Shown: positions 2,819 to 64,000 of the stretch, in pieces
Layout of the letters: the number at the start of each line of letters is the position of its first letter
How positions within the stretch are numbered: the first letter of the stretch is position 1
IMG/VR virus record: IMGVR_UViG_3300038828_000048
Location: 58,260-122,259 of that record
Source of the DNA: a virus
Taxonomy: Duplodnaviria > Caudoviricetes
Length of the DNA stretch: 64,000 nt
Direction: 5' to 3' (one strand)
Notes under the pieces: model-generated
Told to the model about the DNA's origin: nothing
Databases searched by the model: none
Seen by the model: the letters and a program-made list of their open reading frames with translations, nothing else
Translations under genes and position numbers: made by a program

Positions 2819-3577
2819 ATGTCACAACTAACAGATAAGCATTTAACAGATATAAGCGATGGTGTAAGATCCATCAATAATAAATTGTGTGAAAATGGTT
2901 CTTCTGCATCACAAGTAGAAGTTATTAACGATTGTACAAAACCTATTCCTGTATTCTTTTGTAATACAGAAACAAAATTGGATCCTGAAGTAGTATGTTT
3001 ATCTAATGATGGTGGGGTTTCTATAATTAAAGGATGGGAAGTATTTGATGTAAGTACAAACCCACCAACAAGTAAGTTTTATATTGGTGGAGTAGAAGTT
3101 ACAGGATATAGTGTAATACCATGTTCTTCAAACATAAAAGATAGAGAAATTATTACTGTCTGTGTAGATGGTAAAGAATGGACTAAAGTAATTGTATTTG
3201 AAGCTGACTTGCCCGTAAGTTTTTTATGGTTAGATGAAACAGATGCTCCAGTAGCAACCCCAGATCCATTATTAATAAATAATATTAAATGTTTACCTTT
3301 ACAACAAATAGGAATAGAACAGTATTCTGGATTAAGTAACACAACACAAAATTCAACATTTAGTGCTAATGAAGTTACTATAACTTACGATACATCTACT
3401 TTTACTACATCCCCATTGACTATTACTTTAATATCTAGTAATGCATTGGGTAGTAAAGAATTTAAGGTTCAACCCAATACTCAAGAAACTCGAAAATTTA
3501 AGTATCCAGTTATAACAGGAGTTATTATATCAGGAGCAGTTGATAGTAATGTAACAGTAGAATTTCAATTGAATTAA
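2819..3577 (+). CDS. Putative structural protein
   Basis: 252 aa ORF within structural module. Confidence 0.55.
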   Translation: MSQLTDKHLTDISDGVRSINNKLCENGSSASQVEVINDCTKPIPVFFCNTETKLDPEVVCLSNDGGVSIIKGWEVFDVSTNPPTSKFYIGGVEVTGYSVIPCSSNIKDREIITVCVDGKEWTKVIVFEADLPVSFLWLDETDAPVATPDPLLINNIKCLPLQQIGIEQYSGLSNTTQNSTFSANEVTITYDTSTFTTSPLTITLISSNALGSKEFKVQPNTQETRKFKYPVITGVIISGAVDSNVTVEFQLN

Positions 3578-9594: not shown

Positions 9595-9918
9595 ATGAAA
9601 TATAGTAAAAAGATTGATTTATTAAAAAATAGATTCAAAACATCTTTCAAGTTTGTTGGTTTTTTTATGAACGATATATTATTAATAATAATATCAACAA
9701 TTATTTTATTAATTTTTTTGTTTACTATAAGACAATCAGATTTATTATATAATATTATTAAATCTATATTATTGTTAAGCTTTGTTGTCAACATTTGGTG
9801 TTATATCGATAATAAATTTATTTATAAATCTTTAAATAAAGAACCCAAAGGATTTGTTTTATTAATTCTATTGGGTTTATGTTTTTGTTTTAAAGCATAT
9901 GTTAATAGTATTATATAA
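9595..9918 (+). CDS. Membrane protein
   Basis: 107 aa, 3 TM segments. Confidence 0.5.
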   Translation: MKYSKKIDLLKNRFKTSFKFVGFFMNDILLIIISTIILLIFLFTIRQSDLLYNIIKSILLLSFVVNIWCYIDNKFIYKSLNKEPKGFVLLILLGLCFCFKAYVNSII

Positions 9919-9940
9919 TAAAGGGAGAATAAATTAAGTA

Positions 9941-10543
9941 ATGAATCAGTTAACAAATCAATTATATCAAAATATATATTCACTATCAAATAATATACTT
10001 AATAGTTTATATTACGATATGTGTTTTGATGATACTGATTTAAATAAATATATATTAATTTCCAAAGTAACATGTAATAAAAATACAACTCCGTGTGAAA
10101 AAACTTTAGATTCTTTAGTAGAGAAGATAGGAATGTTTTGTAAAAAATCATATGTTCCTAATATGGTTGATGTGATAAAAGATGCATCTATCGAATTTTA
10201 TATGAAAAATCCAGAATGTACACCTTTACCTTTATGGCAAATAATTAGAGATAGGTTATCTTTCCAATATAAACTAAAGATCGAGATTAAGAATATAAAT
10301 GTTCAAAAACATATACTAACATCGTATATTAATAATAATATCAAAGATGCTCCTCCAAATCTTTTAGTTAAGATAAAACCTTCTAAAAATAATAACAAGA
10401 TTTCTATAACTCAGAAATCAATAAAAAGAGATAACTTTGATCCCATATTATCAATTAAATCTTTTTCAAAAGATCTAAAAGATAGCGATTTAAAAATAAA
10501 AGTTAAAGAAAATATTATTCATATTTCAGATTGTAACATATGA
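9941..10543 (+). CDS. Hypothetical protein
   Basis: 200 aa ORF. Confidence 0.55.
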   Translation: MNQLTNQLYQNIYSLSNNILNSLYYDMCFDDTDLNKYILISKVTCNKNTTPCEKTLDSLVEKIGMFCKKSYVPNMVDVIKDASIEFYMKNPECTPLPLWQIIRDRLSFQYKLKIEIKNINVQKHILTSYINNNIKDAPPNLLVKIKPSKNNNKISITQKSIKRDNFDPILSIKSFSKDLKDSDLKIKVKENIIHISDCNI

Positions 10544-13500
10544 GCAATTTTATAGAAATTTGTTTTGGTTTAGAAAATTGTACAAACATTCGTATAGAAT
10601 GGTTATCCAAAGAAGGTGTACAAGTAGCTTGCGATAAAGATAATTGCATTCGTTTAGCACCAGATCCTTATGCAGATGGAGAAAAATGTATAGAAGGATG
10701 GATACATTGTGATGAATGTAAATCGGGTAATAGCGAACCTATATATTTTAAACGATGTTTTTGTACAACTAAAGCAGATTGCTTAGAATGTGAAGAATGT
10801 AAGAAATATGGGGATTCTAGTATTTGTGAAGGTGTATTAACAGAACAACAAAAACAAGAAGGCAGGTTGTGTAATGGTGATTGCCCACCAGATAAACCAT
10901 ATTTTAATCCTATTGTAGAACGATGTGCTGAGTGCATAGAGGGATCAATTAATCAAGATAATCCATGTTTAATATGTGTTCAAGGATCTTGGACATTAAA
11001 ATGTGAAAATTGTGATAAAACTACAGCAGAATGTAAAGAATGTTTAACAAATACTGATTGTAGTAAAAATACAGATGGAAGAAATTGTTGTGATTCACAA
11101 GGAAAATGCGGATGCTGCCCAGGATTTTATTTCGATTGGAAACAAAATAAATGTATTCTTATAGGTCCATGTGGACCAGATAAAGAATGTGGGGATTGTC
11201 AAGAATGTGTTGAAGTAATTGCTCCTGATGGTACAATTACTTATGATTGTGTACCTATTAAATGTCCTCCAGGAACAAAATGTATTAATGGTAAACAATG
11301 TATTCCTTGGGAATGCGAATCGGTTTCGTGTGATAATGGAGCAGATTGTGGTCCGAATTGCGGATGTGTAACTATAAATGGTGTAAAACAATGTGTACCG
11401 TGTGAAATATTAGAGTGTTTAGGTTTATGTGCAGAAGCATTAGGTTGTAGATGCAATGAAGTAACTGATAAATGTGAAGGTTTACCTGCATGTTCAAACC
11501 CTGATTGTGATGGTTCATCTCCGTGTGATGATCCAAACTGTACTTGTTATAAACAAAGATGTGTAAATTGTGGTAATTTTCCATGTAATGGTGAAGATGG
11601 TGGGTGTACATCTTATGCAAATTGTAAATGCTCTGATTCTAATAATTGCGAAGGTGGTAAGGAATGCAAGGATAAAATAAAACTTACACAAAAAGAAAAT
11701 TGTGATAATGTTAATGGGTGTGAACTCGAAGCTGAATTAGTTTTAGAAAATAAATGTAATTGTGATCAAATAGAATTTAAAACTAGATTGATTGCTAATA
11801 CAAGTCAAACTGTAGATCCGATTCCTGGAATTTCTGCGTTGGTGCTACCTGGGTTTGCATCTATAGAAGTAAAGTTATATAAATACGGGGTAGAATATAG
11901 TAAGTTTAAAGAATCAGATTTATTTGGTGATGATGAACTTGTTACTGGTACTATTAATACTATTATTACATATCAAGTTAAAGATTCTTATGGTAAATGG
12001 ATAAATGTTCCTGAAACATCAAATATTCCTATTAGATCTATAAATGTAAATAATATTGTTCCTATAATCAATATTAGTGAAAATTTGATTATAAAAGCTA
12101 TTGACGGTAAACCAACAAGAGCATTTATAAAAGTTATTGCTCAGAATATCAAAGTGACATCGAATAATTGTATAAGTTACGAATCTAAAGAACTTCGTAC
12201 AATGATGGTTGATTTTTCTTTAACAGCATCTCAAGTACAAACTTTATTACTAGACTATATATCTTTTAACTCAGTATTTTTAAATGATACAGTTAATGAT
12301 AGAAAACCATTATTTATTTGGTATAAATCTATTGATGGAGTTAATAATAAAGTTCAATATAAAAATAATGGAGTTTACGCAAATTCTGGATATTTTAGAA
12401 AAAGATATGTTGATAAAGTAGGTAGTACATATAAAGATACAATTGCTTCTCCTGTTGATGGATTAGTTCCTAATTATATGTATATGACCAAAGTGAATTG
12501 TGGATGTAATCCAAATAACTCAGCACTTACTACTGGTCCATTATTGTTCTGTTGTCCAAAGGAATATAATGTAAAATTTGATAATTGTAATACTAAAGTA
12601 TCTATTGATGCGTTCAATGTTTGTTCGGTAAATGGTAGATTATTAGATCACCAATCTCCTAATTTTATATTCCCTACAGAATGTCAAACAAATTATATAG
12701 TAATTGTAGATAAAGAAAGTAGAACAGAGAAAACAGTTGATTTACGATATGAATCTACAAATAGAGTTAGGAATGTTGAAATAAATTCTCCAACCGATCC
12801 TATCGTTGGTATAAGAATCGCTCAAAAATATAATGGTGGATTGCTTTCTGGTATTCAATGTATAAAGGAGTTTAAACCACCTGTAGTAATATTTCCTTCA
12901 TTAGATTTTAAAATTGATTGTGAATTTAGTACAACTAAAGCAAAAGTTACTGTACAACAAACAAGTGGTGCTGATCTTAGAATATCAGATATAGAATATA
13001 TATCTGGTAATAAAAATACACAAATATCATTGAATGTAGTTACTAATTTAGTTGGAAGCATGTTTGTTACAGAAATTCCAAAACAAGTTAGTAATAAATC
13101 GGTATTTCCATTAAAAGCTCTTGTACGATTTGTTGGAGGATGTATAAAATATTTTGATATTCCTTCATGTGAAGTAAAATTAAATTTAGAAACACAAGGT
13201 AGAACAGTTAGTAATAAACTTTGTCCTATATCTGGTACAGGAGTAGTTATAAAAGCAACACCTGATTTTTTTGATAATTCTCGACCTATTACTTATACTC
13301 TTTCTGGTGGTGATCTTTTACAACCATTGAGTGTTTCAAATACCGATGGATCAGCGTTATTTAACGATTTAGGAGCAGGTACTTATACTGGTATAGCTAC
13401 TCAAGATGATCTTATAGCAACATCGACCATCATAGTAAATAATGCTTCTACACCAAACATTACTATAGCAAATAGTAGTATTTGTCAAGGAGAAACAACT

Positions 13501-59983: not shown

Positions 59984-60385
59984 TTATTTGATTAATTTTA
60001 AAGCTTTGAATAGACCTGCTTCTAATGCTTCTTCATAGGAAATAAACCATTCATTATCATTATTTTTAGATAAGGTAATTAAATCTTTATCAGCATGTTG
60101 TATTTGAACTTCCCAAGTAATAAAATCTGTTATTGGAGTTATTATTATTGGAGTAGGTAATTCTCGCAACCATTTTTGTAATAAACCTTGTGTTGGCGCT
60201 GAATAATTATCCCACTCATTGTGATTATATTCATCGTTATCTCCATCTTCACCACTACTAAATTGTATTGCACTATCTTCCAAATAACAATAAAATGTTT
60301 TGTAGTCAAATCCTTTTTCTTTAGCTAATACTGCTGTATTAAAATCTATTAATTCTTCTTGCATAATTTTATTATTATTTATCAT
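59984..60385 (-). CDS. Hypothetical phage protein
   Basis: TA.LAKEKGF...APTQ.LLQKWLRE...SYEEALE.GL. Confidence 0.7.
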   Translation of the reverse strand: MINNNKIMQEELIDFNTAVLAKEKGFDYKTFYCYLEDSAIQFSSGEDGDNDEYNHNEWDNYSAPTQGLLQKWLRELPTPIIITPITDFITWEVQIQHADKDLITLSKNNDNEWFISYEEALEAGLFKALKLIK

Positions 60386-60535: not shown

Positions 60536-60627
60536 ACTTAACAGCGTATATAAGAAATGGCACATAAACATTCGTGCTAAATTTCAAGTTTCTGCAAGTG
60601 CCACTTCTCATATACGCAAACCGAGCA
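60536..60627 (+). repeat. attC-like site 1 (R' lacks TT)
   Basis: ACTTAAC-AGCGTATATAAGAAATGGCAC...GTGCCACTTCTCATATACGC-AAACC-G(--)AGCA; near copy of site 2. Confidence 0.7.
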
Positions 60628-60633
60628 CCAATA

Positions 60634-61020
60634 CTACCTTTCGTGCGGATAAGGAACATATCTAAAATCTCTTATTGAAGAATGGTAAAGATTTTGAATT
60701 TCCCCGTCTAATGGATGATAAAATTTGCCAGATTCATTTGCAGTATAACAGAATGTAGAATCTAATATATTCCCACCATCTCTATTGCAAGAACCTCCAC
60801 CAAAATAATACCTTGTCCCTCCAATACTTTCGTGTAGTGTTTCTTTAACACCAATTACAAATATATTACCAGTACATTCAATAATAATATCTCCAACATT
60901 CGGTTTCCATTTTTTCTGTATCTCATCATTAAAAATACATTCAAGTAAATAATTTTTACTTAACCCTTTGAATGTATCAGGTAAGTAAAATTCTAAATCT
61001 TCTTTTTTAAATTCTTTCAT
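60634..61020 (-). CDS. Cassette 1 hypothetical protein
   Basis: 128 aa between sites 1 and 2. Confidence 0.65.
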   Translation of the reverse strand: MKEFKKEDLEFYLPDTFKGLSKNYLLECIFNDEIQKKWKPNVGDIIIECTGNIFVIGVKETLHESIGGTRYYFGGGSCNRDGGNILDSTFCYTANESGKFYHPLDGEIQNLYHSSIRDFRYVPYPHER

Positions 61021-61052
61021 ATTATTTAATTTTTGTTAATAATCCGTACTGG

Positions 61053-61146
61053 TGCTAACAGCGTATATGAGAAATGACACATAAACATTCGTGCTAAATT
61101 TCAGCATCCTACAAGAGCCACTTCTCATATATGCAAAACGTTATAA
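61053..61146 (+). repeat. attC-like site 2 (intact)
   Basis: TGCTAAC-AGCGTATATGAGAA...TTCTCATATATGC-AAAAC-GTTATAA. Confidence 0.75.
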
Positions 61147-61153
61147 GCAAGTG

Positions 61154-61852
61154 CTACATTTCGTTTCCAAATAGAGTTCCTGCTTGTAAACCTTTTTCTT
61201 TTCTTTTTCCCCACCCACTATTTAGATTATCTTTTGGATATGGAATAATTTTGTGTTTAAGTTCAGATATTATACGCTTTCTGTCTTTTTTGTGAAGTAT
61301 GTACAAATATCTGTGCTTTTTTTTCATTTCAATCCTCTCATAATTTGGGTCAATTTTTATTAGCTCATCAGTTTTAATCGTTCCATATAGAGCGACAACA
61401 CTTCTTGGGTGCATTACCTCACCATTTATCTTATGTAAGTAGCCCTTAATTAGCATAGTATTGTTACCTTGATAAAGCCAATTAGTTGCTTGATAAATTA
61501 TTCCTAAATGGTCTTGCATTGGGTCGCTATAACTTATCAAAACTTTTACTTCTGTATTTTTTCTTAACCAATCAAATGTTTTACCTAAAAAATAACTTTC
61601 ACTATTTTTTGGTGCTTCATCAATCAGCCAAAGTCTTGTAAGTTCTAAAACTTCGCTATTTTCTAAATTAGATGTAATTGATTTAACTGTTTGTCTTCCA
61701 ACAGGAAATCCATATACAGCAACACCAATCAATTCATCTTTATCAAACAAACCAATAGCGTATCTGCAAGAAGTCCATTTGTGCGAGTAATGGTTTTCTA
61801 TAATTAGCTTCTTAGCTACATTCTTATCAATTAAATCAATTCTATAATCCAT
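61154..61852 (-). CDS. Cassette 2: Mom-like adenine-modification (GNAT fold) protein
   Basis: ENHYS, LIGVAVYG.P, LELTRL, NSESYF, LISYSDP..H.G.IYQATNW.Y.G. Confidence 0.75.
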   Translation of the reverse strand: MDYRIDLIDKNVAKKLIIENHYSHKWTSCRYAIGLFDKDELIGVAVYGFPVGRQTVKSITSNLENSEVLELTRLWLIDEAPKNSESYFLGKTFDWLRKNTEVKVLISYSDPMQDHLGIIYQATNWLYQGNNTMLIKGYLHKINGEVMHPRSVVALYGTIKTDELIKIDPNYERIEMKKKHRYLYILHKKDRKRIISELKHKIIPYPKDNLNSGWGKRKEKGLQAGTLFGNEM

Positions 61853-61943
61853 ATTTTAAATTTTTATTTTCCCACCGCACAAAAAAGAAAAGAAAAAGGT
61901 TTCGTCTTTCAATTCAAGTTTTGTGCTATAAATCCGCACCAGC

Positions 61944-62035
61944 TTATAACAGCAGTTTGGCAAAAGCTGCCATTAAAAATTCGTGCGAAAATTGAGCATC
62001 CGTTAGGCAGCCTTCGCATGTACTTGATGTTATGA
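61944..62035 (+). repeat. attC-like site 3 (chimeric right end)
   Basis: TTATAAC-AGCAGTTTGGCAAAAGCTGCC...GGCAGCCTTCGC-ATGTACTTGAT-GTTATGA. Confidence 0.7.
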
Positions 62036-62039
62036 CACA

Positions 62040-62276
62040 TCAAGATTCAAGCTGTTCTAATGTCATTTTTAATCCTGATGCAACTTCATATTCTTCTATA
62101 TCAATATGATTTTTTATCATTAATTTTAATTGTTTACAATATTCTTCTATCGTGCAATTATCCATTGAACACATTGATTCGTAATTAATTCTGCCTATAA
62201 ATCTTTTTACATCTGGATTGTTATTTTTGTCAAGAAGAATAGATGATGTGGTTTTAAAATACAATTTATTATTCAT
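62040..62276 (-). CDS. Cassette 3 gene B, hypothetical
   Basis: 78 aa; IEEYE.AS.LK UVR-like tail. Confidence 0.55.
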   Translation of the reverse strand: MNNKLYFKTTSSILLDKNNNPDVKRFIGRINYESMCSMDNCTIEEYCKQLKLMIKNHIDIEEYEVASGLKMTLEQLES

Positions 62277-62683
62277 GATAATATTAATTCTTTGCCAGTA
62301 AGAGAAAAGTATAAGTTTTGAAGCTGATGCACATACTCAATATTGTGTGGAAGAAAAAATAATTGATCACCTGTAACGTTATTTACTTCTCTTAATAAAA
62401 ACGATGTATAAGAATGTAAAGATTTAACAGATTCTAATTTATATCCATCTTCTATTTCAATTTCATAAGTTGTGTCATATTCGTTTTCATATTCGATAAA
62501 CCCTAATTTTTTAAACCATTCTTTTGTTAGTCCTATCGGATAATGGCAACTTCTATCTATTTGATTTTCTTGATTTGTTAAAATAGACAACAACTTATTA
62601 TCAACTATTTTAATTTTTACAATTAGGTCAGCTCTTAAATATTTAATTATGCTTCCTATTCTTAATTCATTTAATGGTATCAT
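62273..62683 (-). CDS. Cassette 3 gene A, hypothetical (NELRIG family)
   Basis: NELRIG...PI.LT.EW...GF...YVHQLQNLYFSLTG.EL. Confidence 0.7.
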   Translation of the reverse strand: MIPLNELRIGSIIKYLRADLIVKIKIVDNKLLSILTNQENQIDRSCHYPIGLTKEWFKKLGFIEYENEYDTTYEIEIEDGYKLESVKSLHSYTSFLLREVNNVTGDQLFFLPHNIEYVHQLQNLYFSLTGKELILS

Positions 62684-62716
62684 TTTTATTTAATTTAGTG
62701 GTTAATAATTGACGTG

Positions 62717-62780
62717 TCATAACAGTGTATAAGACGATATTTTCTTTCAGAAAAACATCGCTTATACTTGTACGTTATGT
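62717..62780 (+). repeat. attC-like site 4 (intact, extrahelical A)
   Basis: TCATAAC-AGT-GTATAAG(A)CGAT...ATCGCTTATAC-TTGTAC-GTTATGT. Confidence 0.75.
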
Positions 62781-63155
62781 GACAGATAAGGTTAGTTCTT
62801 CACCTATTGATGAATAGAAATTTTGTAATTCATGGAAATATTTAAAATAAGTATCCAATGTTCGCCAATTACGAATACAATGAACTCCAAGCGGTAATGT
62901 ATAGCCTAATAAATACCTATGTCTTTCATCAGACCACTTTATAAACCAATTACTATCTTGTCTCTTAAATATAACCATGTCTCCGCCGTTTATTTCTTCA
63001 AATCCAAAATTTAATAACCACTCTTCAGTAATAGGAATAGGATTATCTGGTTTCATTCCTTTCTCCATATTAGATAAGTAATGTCCAGTTATTATCAAAT
63101 CTCTACCGTCACTTTCTAAATAATTTCCGATTCTTAATTCATTTTTATTTATCAT
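62775..63155 (-). CDS. Cassette 4 hypothetical (NELRIG family, paralog of 62273..62683)
   Basis: NELRIGN...PIPITEEWLLNFGF...HELQNFY; stop lies in the GTTA box. Confidence 0.7.
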   Translation of the reverse strand: MINKNELRIGNYLESDGRDLIITGHYLSNMEKGMKPDNPIPITEEWLLNFGFEEINGGDMVIFKRQDSNWFIKWSDERHRYLLGYTLPLGVHCIRNWRTLDTYFKYFHELQNFYSSIGEELTLSVT

Positions 63156-63190
63156 TTCAATTTTATTTTAATACGTTAATTTTATCCGTC

Positions 63191-63255
63191 ACATAAGAAT
63201 GTACATAACGACATGATCTTATCAGATCACGATCGTATGTACTTTTACGTTAGCA
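63191..63255 (+). repeat. attC-like site 5 (AAC mutated to AAG)
   Basis: ACATAAG-AAT-GTACATA(A)CGA..TGATCT-TATC-AGATCA..TCGTATGTAC-TTTTAC-GTTAGCA. Confidence 0.7.
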
Positions 63256-63259
63256 AACA

Positions 63260-63463
63260 TTAAGAATAACTGATACCCATAATTGGCATCCATTCTTTTA
63301 TGTCGCTTTTTGGTACTTTGACCGTTCCGCTCCACGTCATCACAGTCCATTCGTTACCCATCAAAAAACCTCTTGTCCAGAAATCTTGATGATGAGATGT
63401 GTGTTTTACAAATACATTGTAGCCGTGTATCGGCTCTTCTAATTCGGTTTTTTTAATTTCCAT
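63260..63463 (-). CDS. Cassette 5 hypothetical protein
   Basis: 67 aa, ends EWMPI. Confidence 0.6.
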   Translation of the reverse strand: MEIKKTELEEPIHGYNVFVKHTSHHQDFWTRGFLMGNEWTVMTWSGTVKVPKSDIKEWMPIMGISYS

Positions 63464-63476
63464 AATAATTAACGTT

Positions 63477-63512
63477 TGCTAACACAAGCTATGCATGTAC
63501 TTGACGTTGGCA
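63477..63512 (+). repeat. attC-like site 6 (internally deleted)
   Basis: TGCTAAC-22 nt-GTTGGCA. Confidence 0.6.
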
Positions 63513-63516
63513 GCAA

Positions 63517-63735
63517 TTAAAAGAGCGACAGCTTATCCGTCAAATACTTTTTAATTATTGCCTTTTGTTCATCTGTGGTGTCGGACAAATCCATTTGCAC
63601 ACCATTAATAATTTGAGCAATGTAATTCCAACGTTTTTTCATCGGGGCTTCATTTATGCCTTCAATTACATCTGCAATGTGGACGGTAACATCCATATTT
63701 CTGTCAATTCTTACTTCAATATCTATTGTTTCCAT
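63517..63735 (-). CDS. Cassette 6 hypothetical protein
   Basis: 72 aa between sites 6 and 7. Confidence 0.6.
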   Translation of the reverse strand: METIDIEVRIDRNMDVTVHIADVIEGINEAPMKKRWNYIAQIINGVQMDLSDTTDEQKAIIKKYLTDKLSLF

Positions 63736-63752
63736 TTGAAAATATTAACTGC

Positions 63753-63884
63753 TGCCAACAATATATTGCCAATAGTGGGGCAGACGTGCCACAATTGAGC
63801 ATTGGTACTACTATTTAACTTTGTGCTGATGATGGGCAGTAGTGCCTTGAAACCCCACCATCGGCAATACTCGGAACGTTATTT
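63753..63884 (+). repeat. attC-like site 7 (long, intact)
   Basis: TGCCAAC..TATTGCCAATAGTGGGG...CCCCACCATCGGCAATA-CTCGGAAC-GTTATTT. Confidence 0.7.
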
Positions 63885-64000
63885 CTCTATCTTTAAAAGT
63901 GGGCCGCCCATGAGCAGACGGCCCTATAACAACAATAAAAAACAACCGTTTATGTGGGGCCACCATTAATAGCCCAATACCGAAAAGCCAACTCCGTATA

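Follow-up and report, generated by a model that had tools for sequence, protein, structure and literature searches.

The row of small gene cassettes at the end of a large marine phage genome (a 122-kb contig) appears to be an orphan, recombinase-free array of at least seven mobile cassettes. It belongs to an integron-like system of phages of Flavobacteriia and other Bacteroidota, a reading to which we assign a probability of about 0.8. Integrons are the textbook bacterial device for stocking and swapping accessory genes. In some other phage records that bear the same sites, a recombinase is present at the downstream end of the array; it is absent here, and the array is an orphan member of the group. 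The window, the whole stretch of 64,000 nucleotides that was analyzed, holds the following elements, and every array gene in it lies on the minus strand.

Site A, 60539–60623, minus strand: last hairpin of the array, at its downstream (3′) end; TAAC at 60539–60542; DNA fold z −4.0; far boundary degenerate, with CCG on the plus strand in place of GTT (the left GTT of C1).
Cassette C1, 60621–61059, minus strand: 128-aa ORF at 60634–61020, function unassigned; arms AGCACCAATAC / GTACTGGTGCTAAC.
Site B, 61056–61143, minus strand: hairpin heading C1 on the sense strand; family pattern AACGTTTT-N5-T-N4-GAAGTGGC.
Cassette C2, 61140–61950, minus strand: Mom-like DNA modification gene of anti-restriction type, ORF 61154–61852, which matches PF25680 at 1e-61 and also phrog_1384.
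Site C, 61947–62032, minus strand: hairpin heading C2.
Cassette C3, 62029–62723, minus strand: ORFs 62040–62276 (78 aa) and 62273–62683 (136 aa, phrog_10066).
Site D, 62720–62777, minus strand: short hairpin heading C3; DNA fold z −5.7/−6.8; a seed of model R1.
Cassette C4, 62774–63197, minus strand: ORF 62775–63155 (126 aa, phrog_10066), a paralogue of the C3 gene; the TAAC core supplies its stop codon, TAA.
Site E, 63194–63252, minus strand: short hairpin heading C4; z −4.2/−3.2; one core AAG, not AAC, on the plus strand.
Cassette C5, 63249–63483, minus strand: ORF 63260–63463 (67 aa); common to two arrays.
Element F, 63480–63509, minus strand: 22-nt hybrid or minimal site that barely folds; second assembly path from 63493.
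Cassette C6, 63506–63759, minus strand: ORF 63517–63735 (72 aa); belongs to a co-occurring related array.
Site G, 63756–63887, minus strand: long hairpin heading C6.
Next unit of the alternative array, 3′ end, 63884–64000, minus strand: in contig L103, the tail of a DUF3799-family gene.

The array extends beyond the preliminary description of this DNA by three sites and two units at the contig start. Contig bases 1–127 are the same as window 63366–63492, exactly one 127-mer common to both ends, and in two independent assemblies (L098 and L099) C5 continues into the contig-start array; along this path L098 is 100% identical over 8795 nt. Given the common 127-mer and the continuation in L098 and L099, the main-path order, J-C8-I-C7-H-C5-E-C4-D-C3-C-C2-B-C1-A with eight sites, was taken as true. 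The last 508 bases of the window (63493–64000), which hold most of F, unit 6, and element G, represent a second assembly path, and the window end is 99.2% identical to the other array, on L103. Six units and seven elements had been described as one array; five of the units stand, but unit 6 and the seventh element are part of a related array that occurs alongside, has C5 in common, and was joined in by the assembler.

The phage had also been called crAss-like. Its genome scores 27.8 bits with CrAss_Ring_1, barely over the cut-off of 27, and the phage is possibly crAss-like. The large structural ORFs gave no match to PHROGs, an Rfam scan of the array region returned nothing relevant, and no viral relatives were found for L001:1942–2631. 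Two records that match the flanking gene at 59984–60385 (L002 and L003) were discarded as syntenic relatives: only that gene is common, and no array is present there. Upstream of the array, at a distance of 1.5 kb, is a Tad2-like gene.

The most distinctive property of the units is the complementarity of their ends. In all six (60621/3–61059, 61140–61950, 62029–62723, 62774–63197, 63249–63483, and 63506–63759), the 15-nt ends pair within the unit at 11–12 of 12 variable positions, whereas pairing between different units averages 6.3 and reaches at most 10. The earlier claim that each end is reverse-complementary to its own partner only is thereby confirmed. The single non-Watson-Crick position in the window units is always position 11, which is A.C on the plus strand and G.T on the gene-sense strand. 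Cassettes of other records (L006, L007, L111, and L231–L239) share the TAAC...GTTA hairpins, the 15-nt cassette-specific arms, and the G.T at position 11. Over 12 array loci, this G.T was present in 49 of 55 fully paired sense-strand units and was the sole wobble in 44; the antisense strand of the same loci yielded only 3 fully paired units. Arm pairing at 14/15 was noisy (440 real versus 293 shuffled), and hence only 15/15 was counted. Each cassette has its own arms, which covary over distances of 200–800 nt. Indeed, the Mom cassette of L007 carries compensatory arm changes with the wobble kept. The outer arm of site A, GTTAAGTAGGTAC, has no partner within the window.

Read on the sense strand, a cassette begins with the C of the TAAC core and a 5–6 nt unpaired spacer, followed by an imperfect inner hairpin with a stem of 18–25 bp and a variable loop, in which the start codon of the gene often lies in relatives. 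Next come 1–3 nt, GTT(A), a 12-nt unique arm, one to three ORFs, a second 12-nt arm complementary to the first, and TAA. For L111 and L006, and probably for element I outside the window, ORF starts were located within the hairpin loop. Most sites share only TAAC/GTTA and short motifs, A and B (88% identity) and a few 3′ ends being alike, and sites with unlike loop lengths could not be aligned by MAFFT. Of the seven AAC-hairpin-GTT elements in the preliminary description, the hairpins between units were recovered, but the exact form does not hold throughout: the left GTT of C1 is CCG, E carries AAG, and the 22 nt of F barely fold.

Junctions of the circular form fold into one long hairpin. With DNA parameters, the short elements fold far better than shuffled sequences (z of −5.7/−6.8 for D, −4.2/−3.2 for E, and −4.0/−3.9 for A); long-looped sites, though their stems are plainly visible, do not beat shuffles (z about −1). 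The sense strand is the more stable one only in some cases with DNA parameters. With RNA parameters the transcribed strand is favored by 7–17 kcal/mol. Strong asymmetry between the strands is confined to RNA parameters and would be equally expected if the hairpins acted in the transcript. Two site detectors, one counting stems and one using energy, performed no better than on shuffles. A record retrieved with an exact 19-nt site pattern (L005) was a chance GC-rich match.

At the level of sequence comparison, the array cassettes are shown to be mobile. The exact C5 protein occurs on 14 contigs in at least four contexts, and the 3′ junction of C5 breaks exactly at TAA|C. The site G hairpin and C6 occur together with three alternative upstream neighbors (Dam, a 99-aa gene, and a DUF3799 gene). 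The cultured Flavobacterium phages filifjonk9-1 and mumin9-1 are 99.5%–99.96% identical and differ by whole hairpin-plus-gene units; the insertions, of 1550 nt and 384 nt, have a hairpin at the start and TAAC at the end. For this pair, the comparison for gain or loss at G|TT, suggested at the outset, gave units cut exactly at TAAC. The proposed joining of cassettes at G|TT on the plus strand, which is TAA|C on the sense strand, also agrees with the breakpoints between contexts, which fall there. Homology to another phage's array, on L006, is confined to the Mom cassette (87% identity over 61139–61960 only), and the L006 Mom junctions, like element F, are not clean TAA|C products. The L007 Mom cassette is headed by a hairpin 90% identical to site B. 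The circular intermediates that had been postulated find a counterpart in L102, a cassette-only contig of 2260 bp (2.26 kb), circular or tandem, with six cassette genes and one junction hairpin; homologous recombination between two near-identical 118-nt hairpins could also account for this junction.

The array had been termed CALIN-like, with no tyrosine recombinase encoded in the window. This absence extends to the whole 122-kb contig, which has no PF00589 match, but where such arrays do have a linked enzyme, it is Xer-like. A short Xer-like tyrosine recombinase adjacent to an array was found in 9 of 50 site-bearing IMG/VR phage records, a non-random set picked by record size. These enzymes are 265–294 aa long and co-oriented, with the array or site 0.3–2.5 kb upstream on the same strand. 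Their best family is NF040815 (XerA/integron integrase); the match to TIGR02249 is split in two, with profile positions of about 177–238 left out, and scores below the cut-off, and the nearest solved structures are XerA and VchIntIA. Judged by these matches, the array-linked recombinase is about equally related to archaeal XerA and to IntI and is without the I2 domain, the defining feature of IntI (PMC4792948). Tyrosine recombinases were absent from 70 of 71 Mom-bearing viral records and, in the remaining one, present away from any array. Since there is none here nor in these 70 records, the arrays could be fossils. Among Flavobacteriaceae, homologues of the recombinase are encoded by 136 of 201 genomes, a count that may include housekeeping XerC/D, and only scattered units, with no tidy arrays, were found near the 12 best matches.

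A mechanism can be proposed for the exchange. In a circular cassette, the two arms and the inner hairpin would stack into a single long folded site, with the position-11 G.T wobble in its outer 15-bp stem. Strand exchange by a tyrosine recombinase at TAA|C (G|TTA on the plus strand of the window) would then insert, excise, and reshuffle whole hairpin-plus-gene units. As the phage has no recombinase, exchange would need an enzyme supplied in trans, perhaps by the host or a co-infecting phage. We infer that the sites fold as single-stranded DNA, that the gene-sense strand is the one cut, that the Xer-like enzyme is the catalyst of cassette exchange, and that the position-11 wobble selects the strand. 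A wider proposal, to which we would give slightly less than even odds, is that the arrays constitute a second, self-contained type of integron, whose main users are Bacteroidota phages that trade counter-defence genes. In this type, an I2-less Xer-like enzyme would act on sites folded from the sense strand, and a fixed G.T wobble in the outer stem, not extrahelical bases, would show which strand is to be cut. If so, the system either arose independently or preserves an intermediate stage between Xer recombinases and IntI. The origin of IntI from Xer-like enzymes and the coevolution of I2 with attC are an unsettled puzzle (PMC4792948).

It is unlikely, although this is the best of the alternatives, that the array is a classical CALIN, with ordinary attC sites acquired from, or traded with, bacterial integrons and a host IntI acting on them. 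In its favor, attC sites have the same AAC...GTT hairpin geometry and show the same own-end footprint. Moreover, model R1, seeded with sites D, E, and J, matches sites of Polaribacter phage P12002L at 48.5 and 26.3 bits and so ties the window sites to sites that HattCI/Infernal called attC, including one that IntI1 recombined into attI1 in E. coli (PMC9892861). R1 is too sequence-bound, missing most sites even with filters off; it matched in 2 of 151 Flavobacteriaceae chromosomes, one match being a single cassette in a defence island. The classical parts assumed in the preliminary description are nevertheless not those found: every recombinase beside such arrays is without the IntI-specific I2 region, the hairpin heads the cassette, the genes lie on the folding strand, opposite to the classical layout, and start inside the hairpin, and the arms are 15 nt long with a fixed wobble, not the 7-nt boxes RYYYAAC/GTTRRRY.

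Less probable again is that the hairpins are RNA-level signals, acting as terminators or in RNase processing or translation control with pairing of transcript ends, and that shuffling is homologous recombination between repeated regulatory hairpins, as in the PeSL modules. All mismatches are G.U-compatible on the transcribed strand, which is also the one favored with RNA parameters; start codons lie in loops, the Mom gene has its own 21-bp long-range pairing of RNA type, and near-identical hairpins (A/B at 88%; the 118-nt G copies) could recombine by homology. Most sites, however, are too little alike for homologous exchange, yet the breakpoints fall exactly at TAAC. A role in RNA may coexist with DNA exchange, but it leaves unexplained these breakpoints, the cassette-unique arms that covary over 200–800 nt, and the dedicated recombinase at the array ends in nine records. 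Chance or an assembly artefact, suggested by the chimeric contig end across the shared 127-mer, is counted as already refuted by the complete identity of the main array over 8795 nt in an independent assembly, by the same architecture in cultured, finished phage genomes, and by own-end pairing far above that between units.

An integron-like cassette system would place integron-style logic in virulent phages, with reversed gene polarity, another structural mark, and a Xer-like enzyme, and it suggests how the "early/accessory" regions of Flavobacteriia phages become hypervariable. The present array, with a Mom-like gene inside and the Tad2-like gene near, has a cargo that looks like counter-defence; given Mom and many methyltransferases among the cargo, and the neighboring Tad2-like gene, such regions are probably counter-defence libraries. 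The sequence rule (TAAC/GTTA, 15-nt arms, and the position-11 wobble) can be used for finding cassettes and mining for new anti-defence genes, and the system provides a natural test case of a tyrosine recombinase that handles folded sites without I2. The window adds an orphan array together with direct population evidence of exchange, namely a shared C5, assemblies that break exactly where cassettes end, and a circular or tandem contig composed of cassettes alone.

Hairpin-cassette arrays of Bacteroidota phages with a Xer-like recombinase are an operational class, which was not found in the literature. Analogous to integrons and CALINs, they consist of small promoter-poor genes separated by imperfect AAC / GTT hairpin sites; each cassette begins with a sequence that pairs with its own end and not with the adjacent box, the footprint expected of a circular intermediate. 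The crossover is G|TT / AA|C, the recombinase is of the Xer/IntI branch, and integrase-free arrays are common. Counted as attC-type, the sites fit the definition of a CALIN (at least two close attC-type sites with no integrase near). In contrast to integrons, the linked enzyme of the phage arrays, without I2, lies downstream and co-oriented, not upstream and divergent. The hairpin precedes the gene, may hold its start codon, and the genes are read from the folding strand, whereas in the classical layout attC follows the ORF, which is read on the top strand with its expression driven by Pc, next to attI; neither attI nor Pc was identified at the array. The 15-nt arms with G.T at position 11 differ from the 7-nt boxes, and the phage cores, mostly TAAC/GTTA followed by T or G, fit RRRY poorly.

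CALINs in virulent phages, including Polaribacter phage P12002L, have already been published (Qi et al., 2023; PMC9892861). P12002L has sites of the same family according to R1 and a Mom-like cassette (75% DNA identity) in its CALIN, and both phages are without integrase; the present array is larger (at least seven cassettes) and lies in a 122-kb, possibly crAss-like phage. The sites of P12002L were treated as ordinary attC, with a remark on "divergent directions"; arms pairing within a unit, a wobble at position 11, genes in reverse orientation, and a Xer-like partner are not described there (PMC9892861). The PeSL modules of T4-type phages are similar in their hyperplastic regions, with small accessory ORFs between stem-loop repeats and modular gain and loss, and mini-circles have been proposed for them as well (PMC2839356; PMC4122927). 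PeSLs, however, are conserved promoter-terminator repeats that recombine by homology, whereas the sites of the phage arrays differ in sequence, the ends of each unit are unique and complementary, the breakpoints map precisely to a core of four bases, and some other phage records with such sites encode a recombinase dedicated to them. Integration of the CTX phage at dif by host XerCD is a case of an I2-less Xer-type enzyme acting on a one-strand hairpin; a single strand is exchanged, and the product is resolved by replication. There, a whole phage genome enters one chromosomal site via the host XerCD, whereas in the phage cassette system, in which single-strand folding is only inferred, many small cassettes move and a dedicated enzyme is linked to the array.

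On the plus strand of the window, six short units are separated by hairpin elements (sites A to G), and the minus strand carries every ORF of the array region. The minus strand is therefore referred to as the sense strand, on which the core TAA|C corresponds to G|TT(A) of the plus strand. All six pairs of unit ends reported in the preliminary description were found in place when the region was read directly. Within each unit, the opening 15 nt (GTT plus 12) is the reverse complement of the closing 15 nt (12 plus AAC) at every position but one. The mismatched position is always the 11th, where the left arm has an A where a G is needed, giving an A·C mismatch on the plus strand and a G·T wobble on the gene-sense strand. 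Own-end pairing extends over 11–12 of the 12 variable positions, compared with a mean of 6.3 and a maximum of 10 for the ends of different units. The elements between units have the shape AAC-hairpin-GTT, with a few deviations: the left GTT of cassette C1 is CCG, E has AAG in place of AAC, and F is just 22 nt long. The C4 gene ends on the TAA of a TAAC core (window 62775–62777), which thus serves both for recombination and as a stop codon.

The window is the final 64 kb of a 122,259-base IMG/VR contig, and contig bases 1–127 are identical to window 63366–63492, exactly one 127-mer; the sequences differ beyond it. Three more sites lie at the contig start:

Contig 115–199, site H
Contig 415–535, site I
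Contig 1324–1378, site J

Two further units at the contig start obey the own-end rule and carry the position-11 mismatch. An independent assembly (L098) is 100% identical to the contig-start path across 8795 nt. A second independent contig of 121,765 bases (L099) has the order backbone-C8-C7-C5 and ends exactly after the TAA of C5; assemblies break at cassette junctions, as in this instance. Window 63250–64000 is 99.2% identical to another array (L103). The samples of L098–L105 are ERZ794929, ERZ27240681/83, and ERZ27290313. The final 508 bases of the window (63493–64000) are judged from these comparisons to be an assembly chimera across one 127-mer, derived from a co-occurring array that shares C5. 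Of what was first described, unit 6 and element 7 are part of that co-occurring array. The true array is read as J-C8, I-C7, H-C5, E-C4, D-C3, C-C2, B-C1, A. Because of the 127-mer overlap, the array at the contig start, the independent assemblies and the L103 match, the genome is probably complete and circularly permuted, with a length of ∼121.6 kb.

The exact C5 protein was found in 14 contigs and at least four contexts. On the 3′ side of C5, the main array has ...GCTAA|C and then hairpin E with C4; six other contigs have ...GCTAA|T and then another hairpin and another gene. The contexts part exactly within the TAAC core. Hairpin G, together with C6, has three alternative upstream neighbors: Dam, a gene of 99 aa, and a DUF3799 gene. 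A contig of 2401 bases (L102; ENA ERZ27290313 k141_252875) has a terminal overlap of 141 nt, equal to the assembler's k, and therefore represents a 2260-base circle or a tandem repeat. It contains only cassettes, with six genes including C5 and C6 and their sites, joined via one G-type hairpin. L102 matches the segment of another contig (L101) that lies between two 118-nt hairpins, and homologous exchange between these near-identical hairpins could account for the junction, for L102 only. Two Flavobacterium phages in culture, filifjonk9-1 and mumin9-1, are 99.5%–99.96% identical around their arrays and differ by two insertions of 1550 and 384 nt. The first base of each insertion directly follows a TAAC, at the start of a hairpin, and its last bases are TAAC; one of the two adjoins non-hairpin DNA, at the final TAAC of the array. 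The comparison at G|TT proposed for related phages gave breaks at sense TAA|C in both the C5 contexts and these insertions, evidence that the units are mobile. Five cassettes of the filifjonk9-1 array (L111 5279–11479) are DNA methyltransferases, one of them within the 1550-nt insertion absent from mumin9-1.

Relatives of Mom occur in 80 viral loci that were compared. One locus (L006) is 87% identical to this genome over 61139–61960 only, which is the Mom cassette, and is a chain of at least eight units following the own-end rule. In another (L007), the arms of the Mom cassette are different, having co-changed on both sides, and the position-11 wobble is kept; the hairpin heading this cassette is 90% identical to window sites A and B.

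In plus-strand terms the break lies at G|TT, as first described, and every unit owns its right-hand hairpin. In filifjonk9-1 and L006, many ORFs begin in the hairpin loop and continue across the 3′ arm, the GTTA core, and then the cassette arm; in L006, for example, a lipoprotein signal peptide is encoded this way. Element I and C7 of this genome probably follow the same pattern. The ORF starts in loops and the ends of the insertions show that a hairpin belongs to its downstream gene. Across 12 array loci, 55 units with fully paired 15-nt arms (G·T allowed) were found on the sense strand and 3 on the antisense strand. The position-11 wobble (leading-arm G opposite trailing-arm T) is present in 49 of the 55 and is the sole wobble in 44. 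A single position-11-marked cassette was also seen in a Flavobacteriaceae chromosome (L110; G166:C1:740500-760400, ∼9800–10700), in a defense island (HamA plus helicase, AAA_15 ATPase), with its ORF on the strand opposite to the G·T-wobble strand.

With DNA parameters, the short sites A, D, and E fold far better than shuffled sequences (z −3.2 to −6.8). The long-looped sites B, C, and G have z of about −1, yet stems of 15–20 bp are evident. When the end of a unit is joined to its own start via either neighboring hairpin, as in a circular form, the result is a single long imperfect hairpin with a 15-bp outer stem and an inner stem of 18–25 bp in which one base is often bulged. The internal loop is asymmetric; on the sense strand it has 5–6 nt after AAC and 1–3 nt ahead of GTT. 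RNA parameters make the sense strand 7–17 kcal/mol more stable than the plus strand, because all non-Watson-Crick pairs there are G·U; under DNA parameters the two strands differ little and inconsistently. The strand bias of pairing is real and by itself compatible with a role in either DNA or RNA. Four sites share a loop motif on the plus strand, ∼TTCGTGC-N-AAAWTT-SAGCAT, with variants in H and L007:

Window 60571–60591, plus strand, loop motif in site A
Window 61088–61108, plus strand, loop motif in site B
Window 61982–61999, plus strand, loop motif in site C
Window 63785–63802, plus strand, loop motif in site G

This motif might bind a protein or act as a promoter. Phage P12002L (L026 3041–3933) has four paired-end units spaced by merely 4–8 nt and without an inner hairpin. 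This spacing and element F point to the existence of minimal sites.

The statement that no recombinase is encoded can be extended to the whole genome, which has zero matches to PF00589. There was likewise no PF00589 match in 70 of 71 Mom-bearing viral records, or in P12002L and filifjonk9-1. A 17-base pattern was drawn up from site B and sites in L006 and L111, using their 5′ arms, and was found in at least 119 IMG/VR stretches. Among 50 pattern-bearing records, picked by record length, 11 encode a tyrosine recombinase, nine of which are short (199–294 aa as called, eight being 265–294 aa). In all nine, the site or several position-11-marked units in a row lie 0.3–2.5 kb upstream on the same strand; L237, whose recombinase is at 9702–10502, has nine marked units. 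In NCBIfam they match NF040815 (XerA/integron integrase) best, scoring 166–206 bits, under the cut-off of 220, and their Pfam matches are PF00589 and PF13495. Among solved structures, XerA (E = 3e-30) and VchIntIA (E = 7e-29, restricted to the N-terminal part) come closest. The match to the integron-integrase model is split in two and leaves out the part for the I2 domain, the defining feature of IntI that reads the extrahelical bases of attC (PMC4792948). A short Xer-like enzyme beside the arrays is thus confirmed for other site-bearing phage records. As candidates for a host-supplied enzyme, homologues at 35%–54% identity, which may include XerC/D, occur in 136 of 201 Flavobacteriaceae genomes, with just scattered marked units near the best of them. 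We infer that the Xer-like enzyme is the catalyst, that a folded strand is involved, and that the wobble has a role.

C2 encodes a Mom-like DNA modification gene (PF25680, 1e-61), and C3 and C4 each include a phrog_10066 paralogue; no family assignment was found for the remaining cassettes. A Tad2-like anti-Thoeris gene (PF11195, 1e-25) lies on the minus strand at bases 2877–3146 of this contig (L001; G000), 1.5 kb upstream of the array, and the neighborhood is a counter-defense region. In addition to its arms, the Mom cassette contains, further in, two perfect 21-nt inverted repeats (window 61188–61208 and 61882–61902), of which one belongs to the 5′ leader and its partner to the final ORF codons; they are partly retained in L006 and L007. 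They resemble a means of controlling a toxic gene at the RNA level, distinct from the cassette arms. The phage, AT-rich with 27% GC, includes a 6786-aa ORF. Its description as crAss-like is plausible but weakly supported, one protein scoring barely above the Pfam cut-off for CrAss_Ring_1 (27.8 versus 27 bits).

The array is a real, integron-like cassette array and is orphan, since its genome is without PF00589 while other site-bearing phage records encode an adjacent Xer-like enzyme. A literature search found no paper describing the reversed polarity, the fixed wobble in long arms, or an Xer-like partner. The nearest phage precedent for modular shuffling is the PeSL modules of T4-type phages (PMC2839356, PMC4122927), which differ in that they shuffle via homology between conserved repeats. 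Site geometry is shared with classical integrons; the difference is that here the genes are read from the opposite strand. Clusters of attC sites lacking an integrase (CALINs) were described in virulent phages, including P12002L, whose CALIN contains Mom-like and methyltransferase genes and one site recombined by IntI1 (Qi et al., 2023; PMC9892861). A model seeded with sites D, E, and J (R1) links the window sites to those of P12002L, and the Mom genes of the two phages are 75% identical at the DNA level; the array is therefore of a kind already published.
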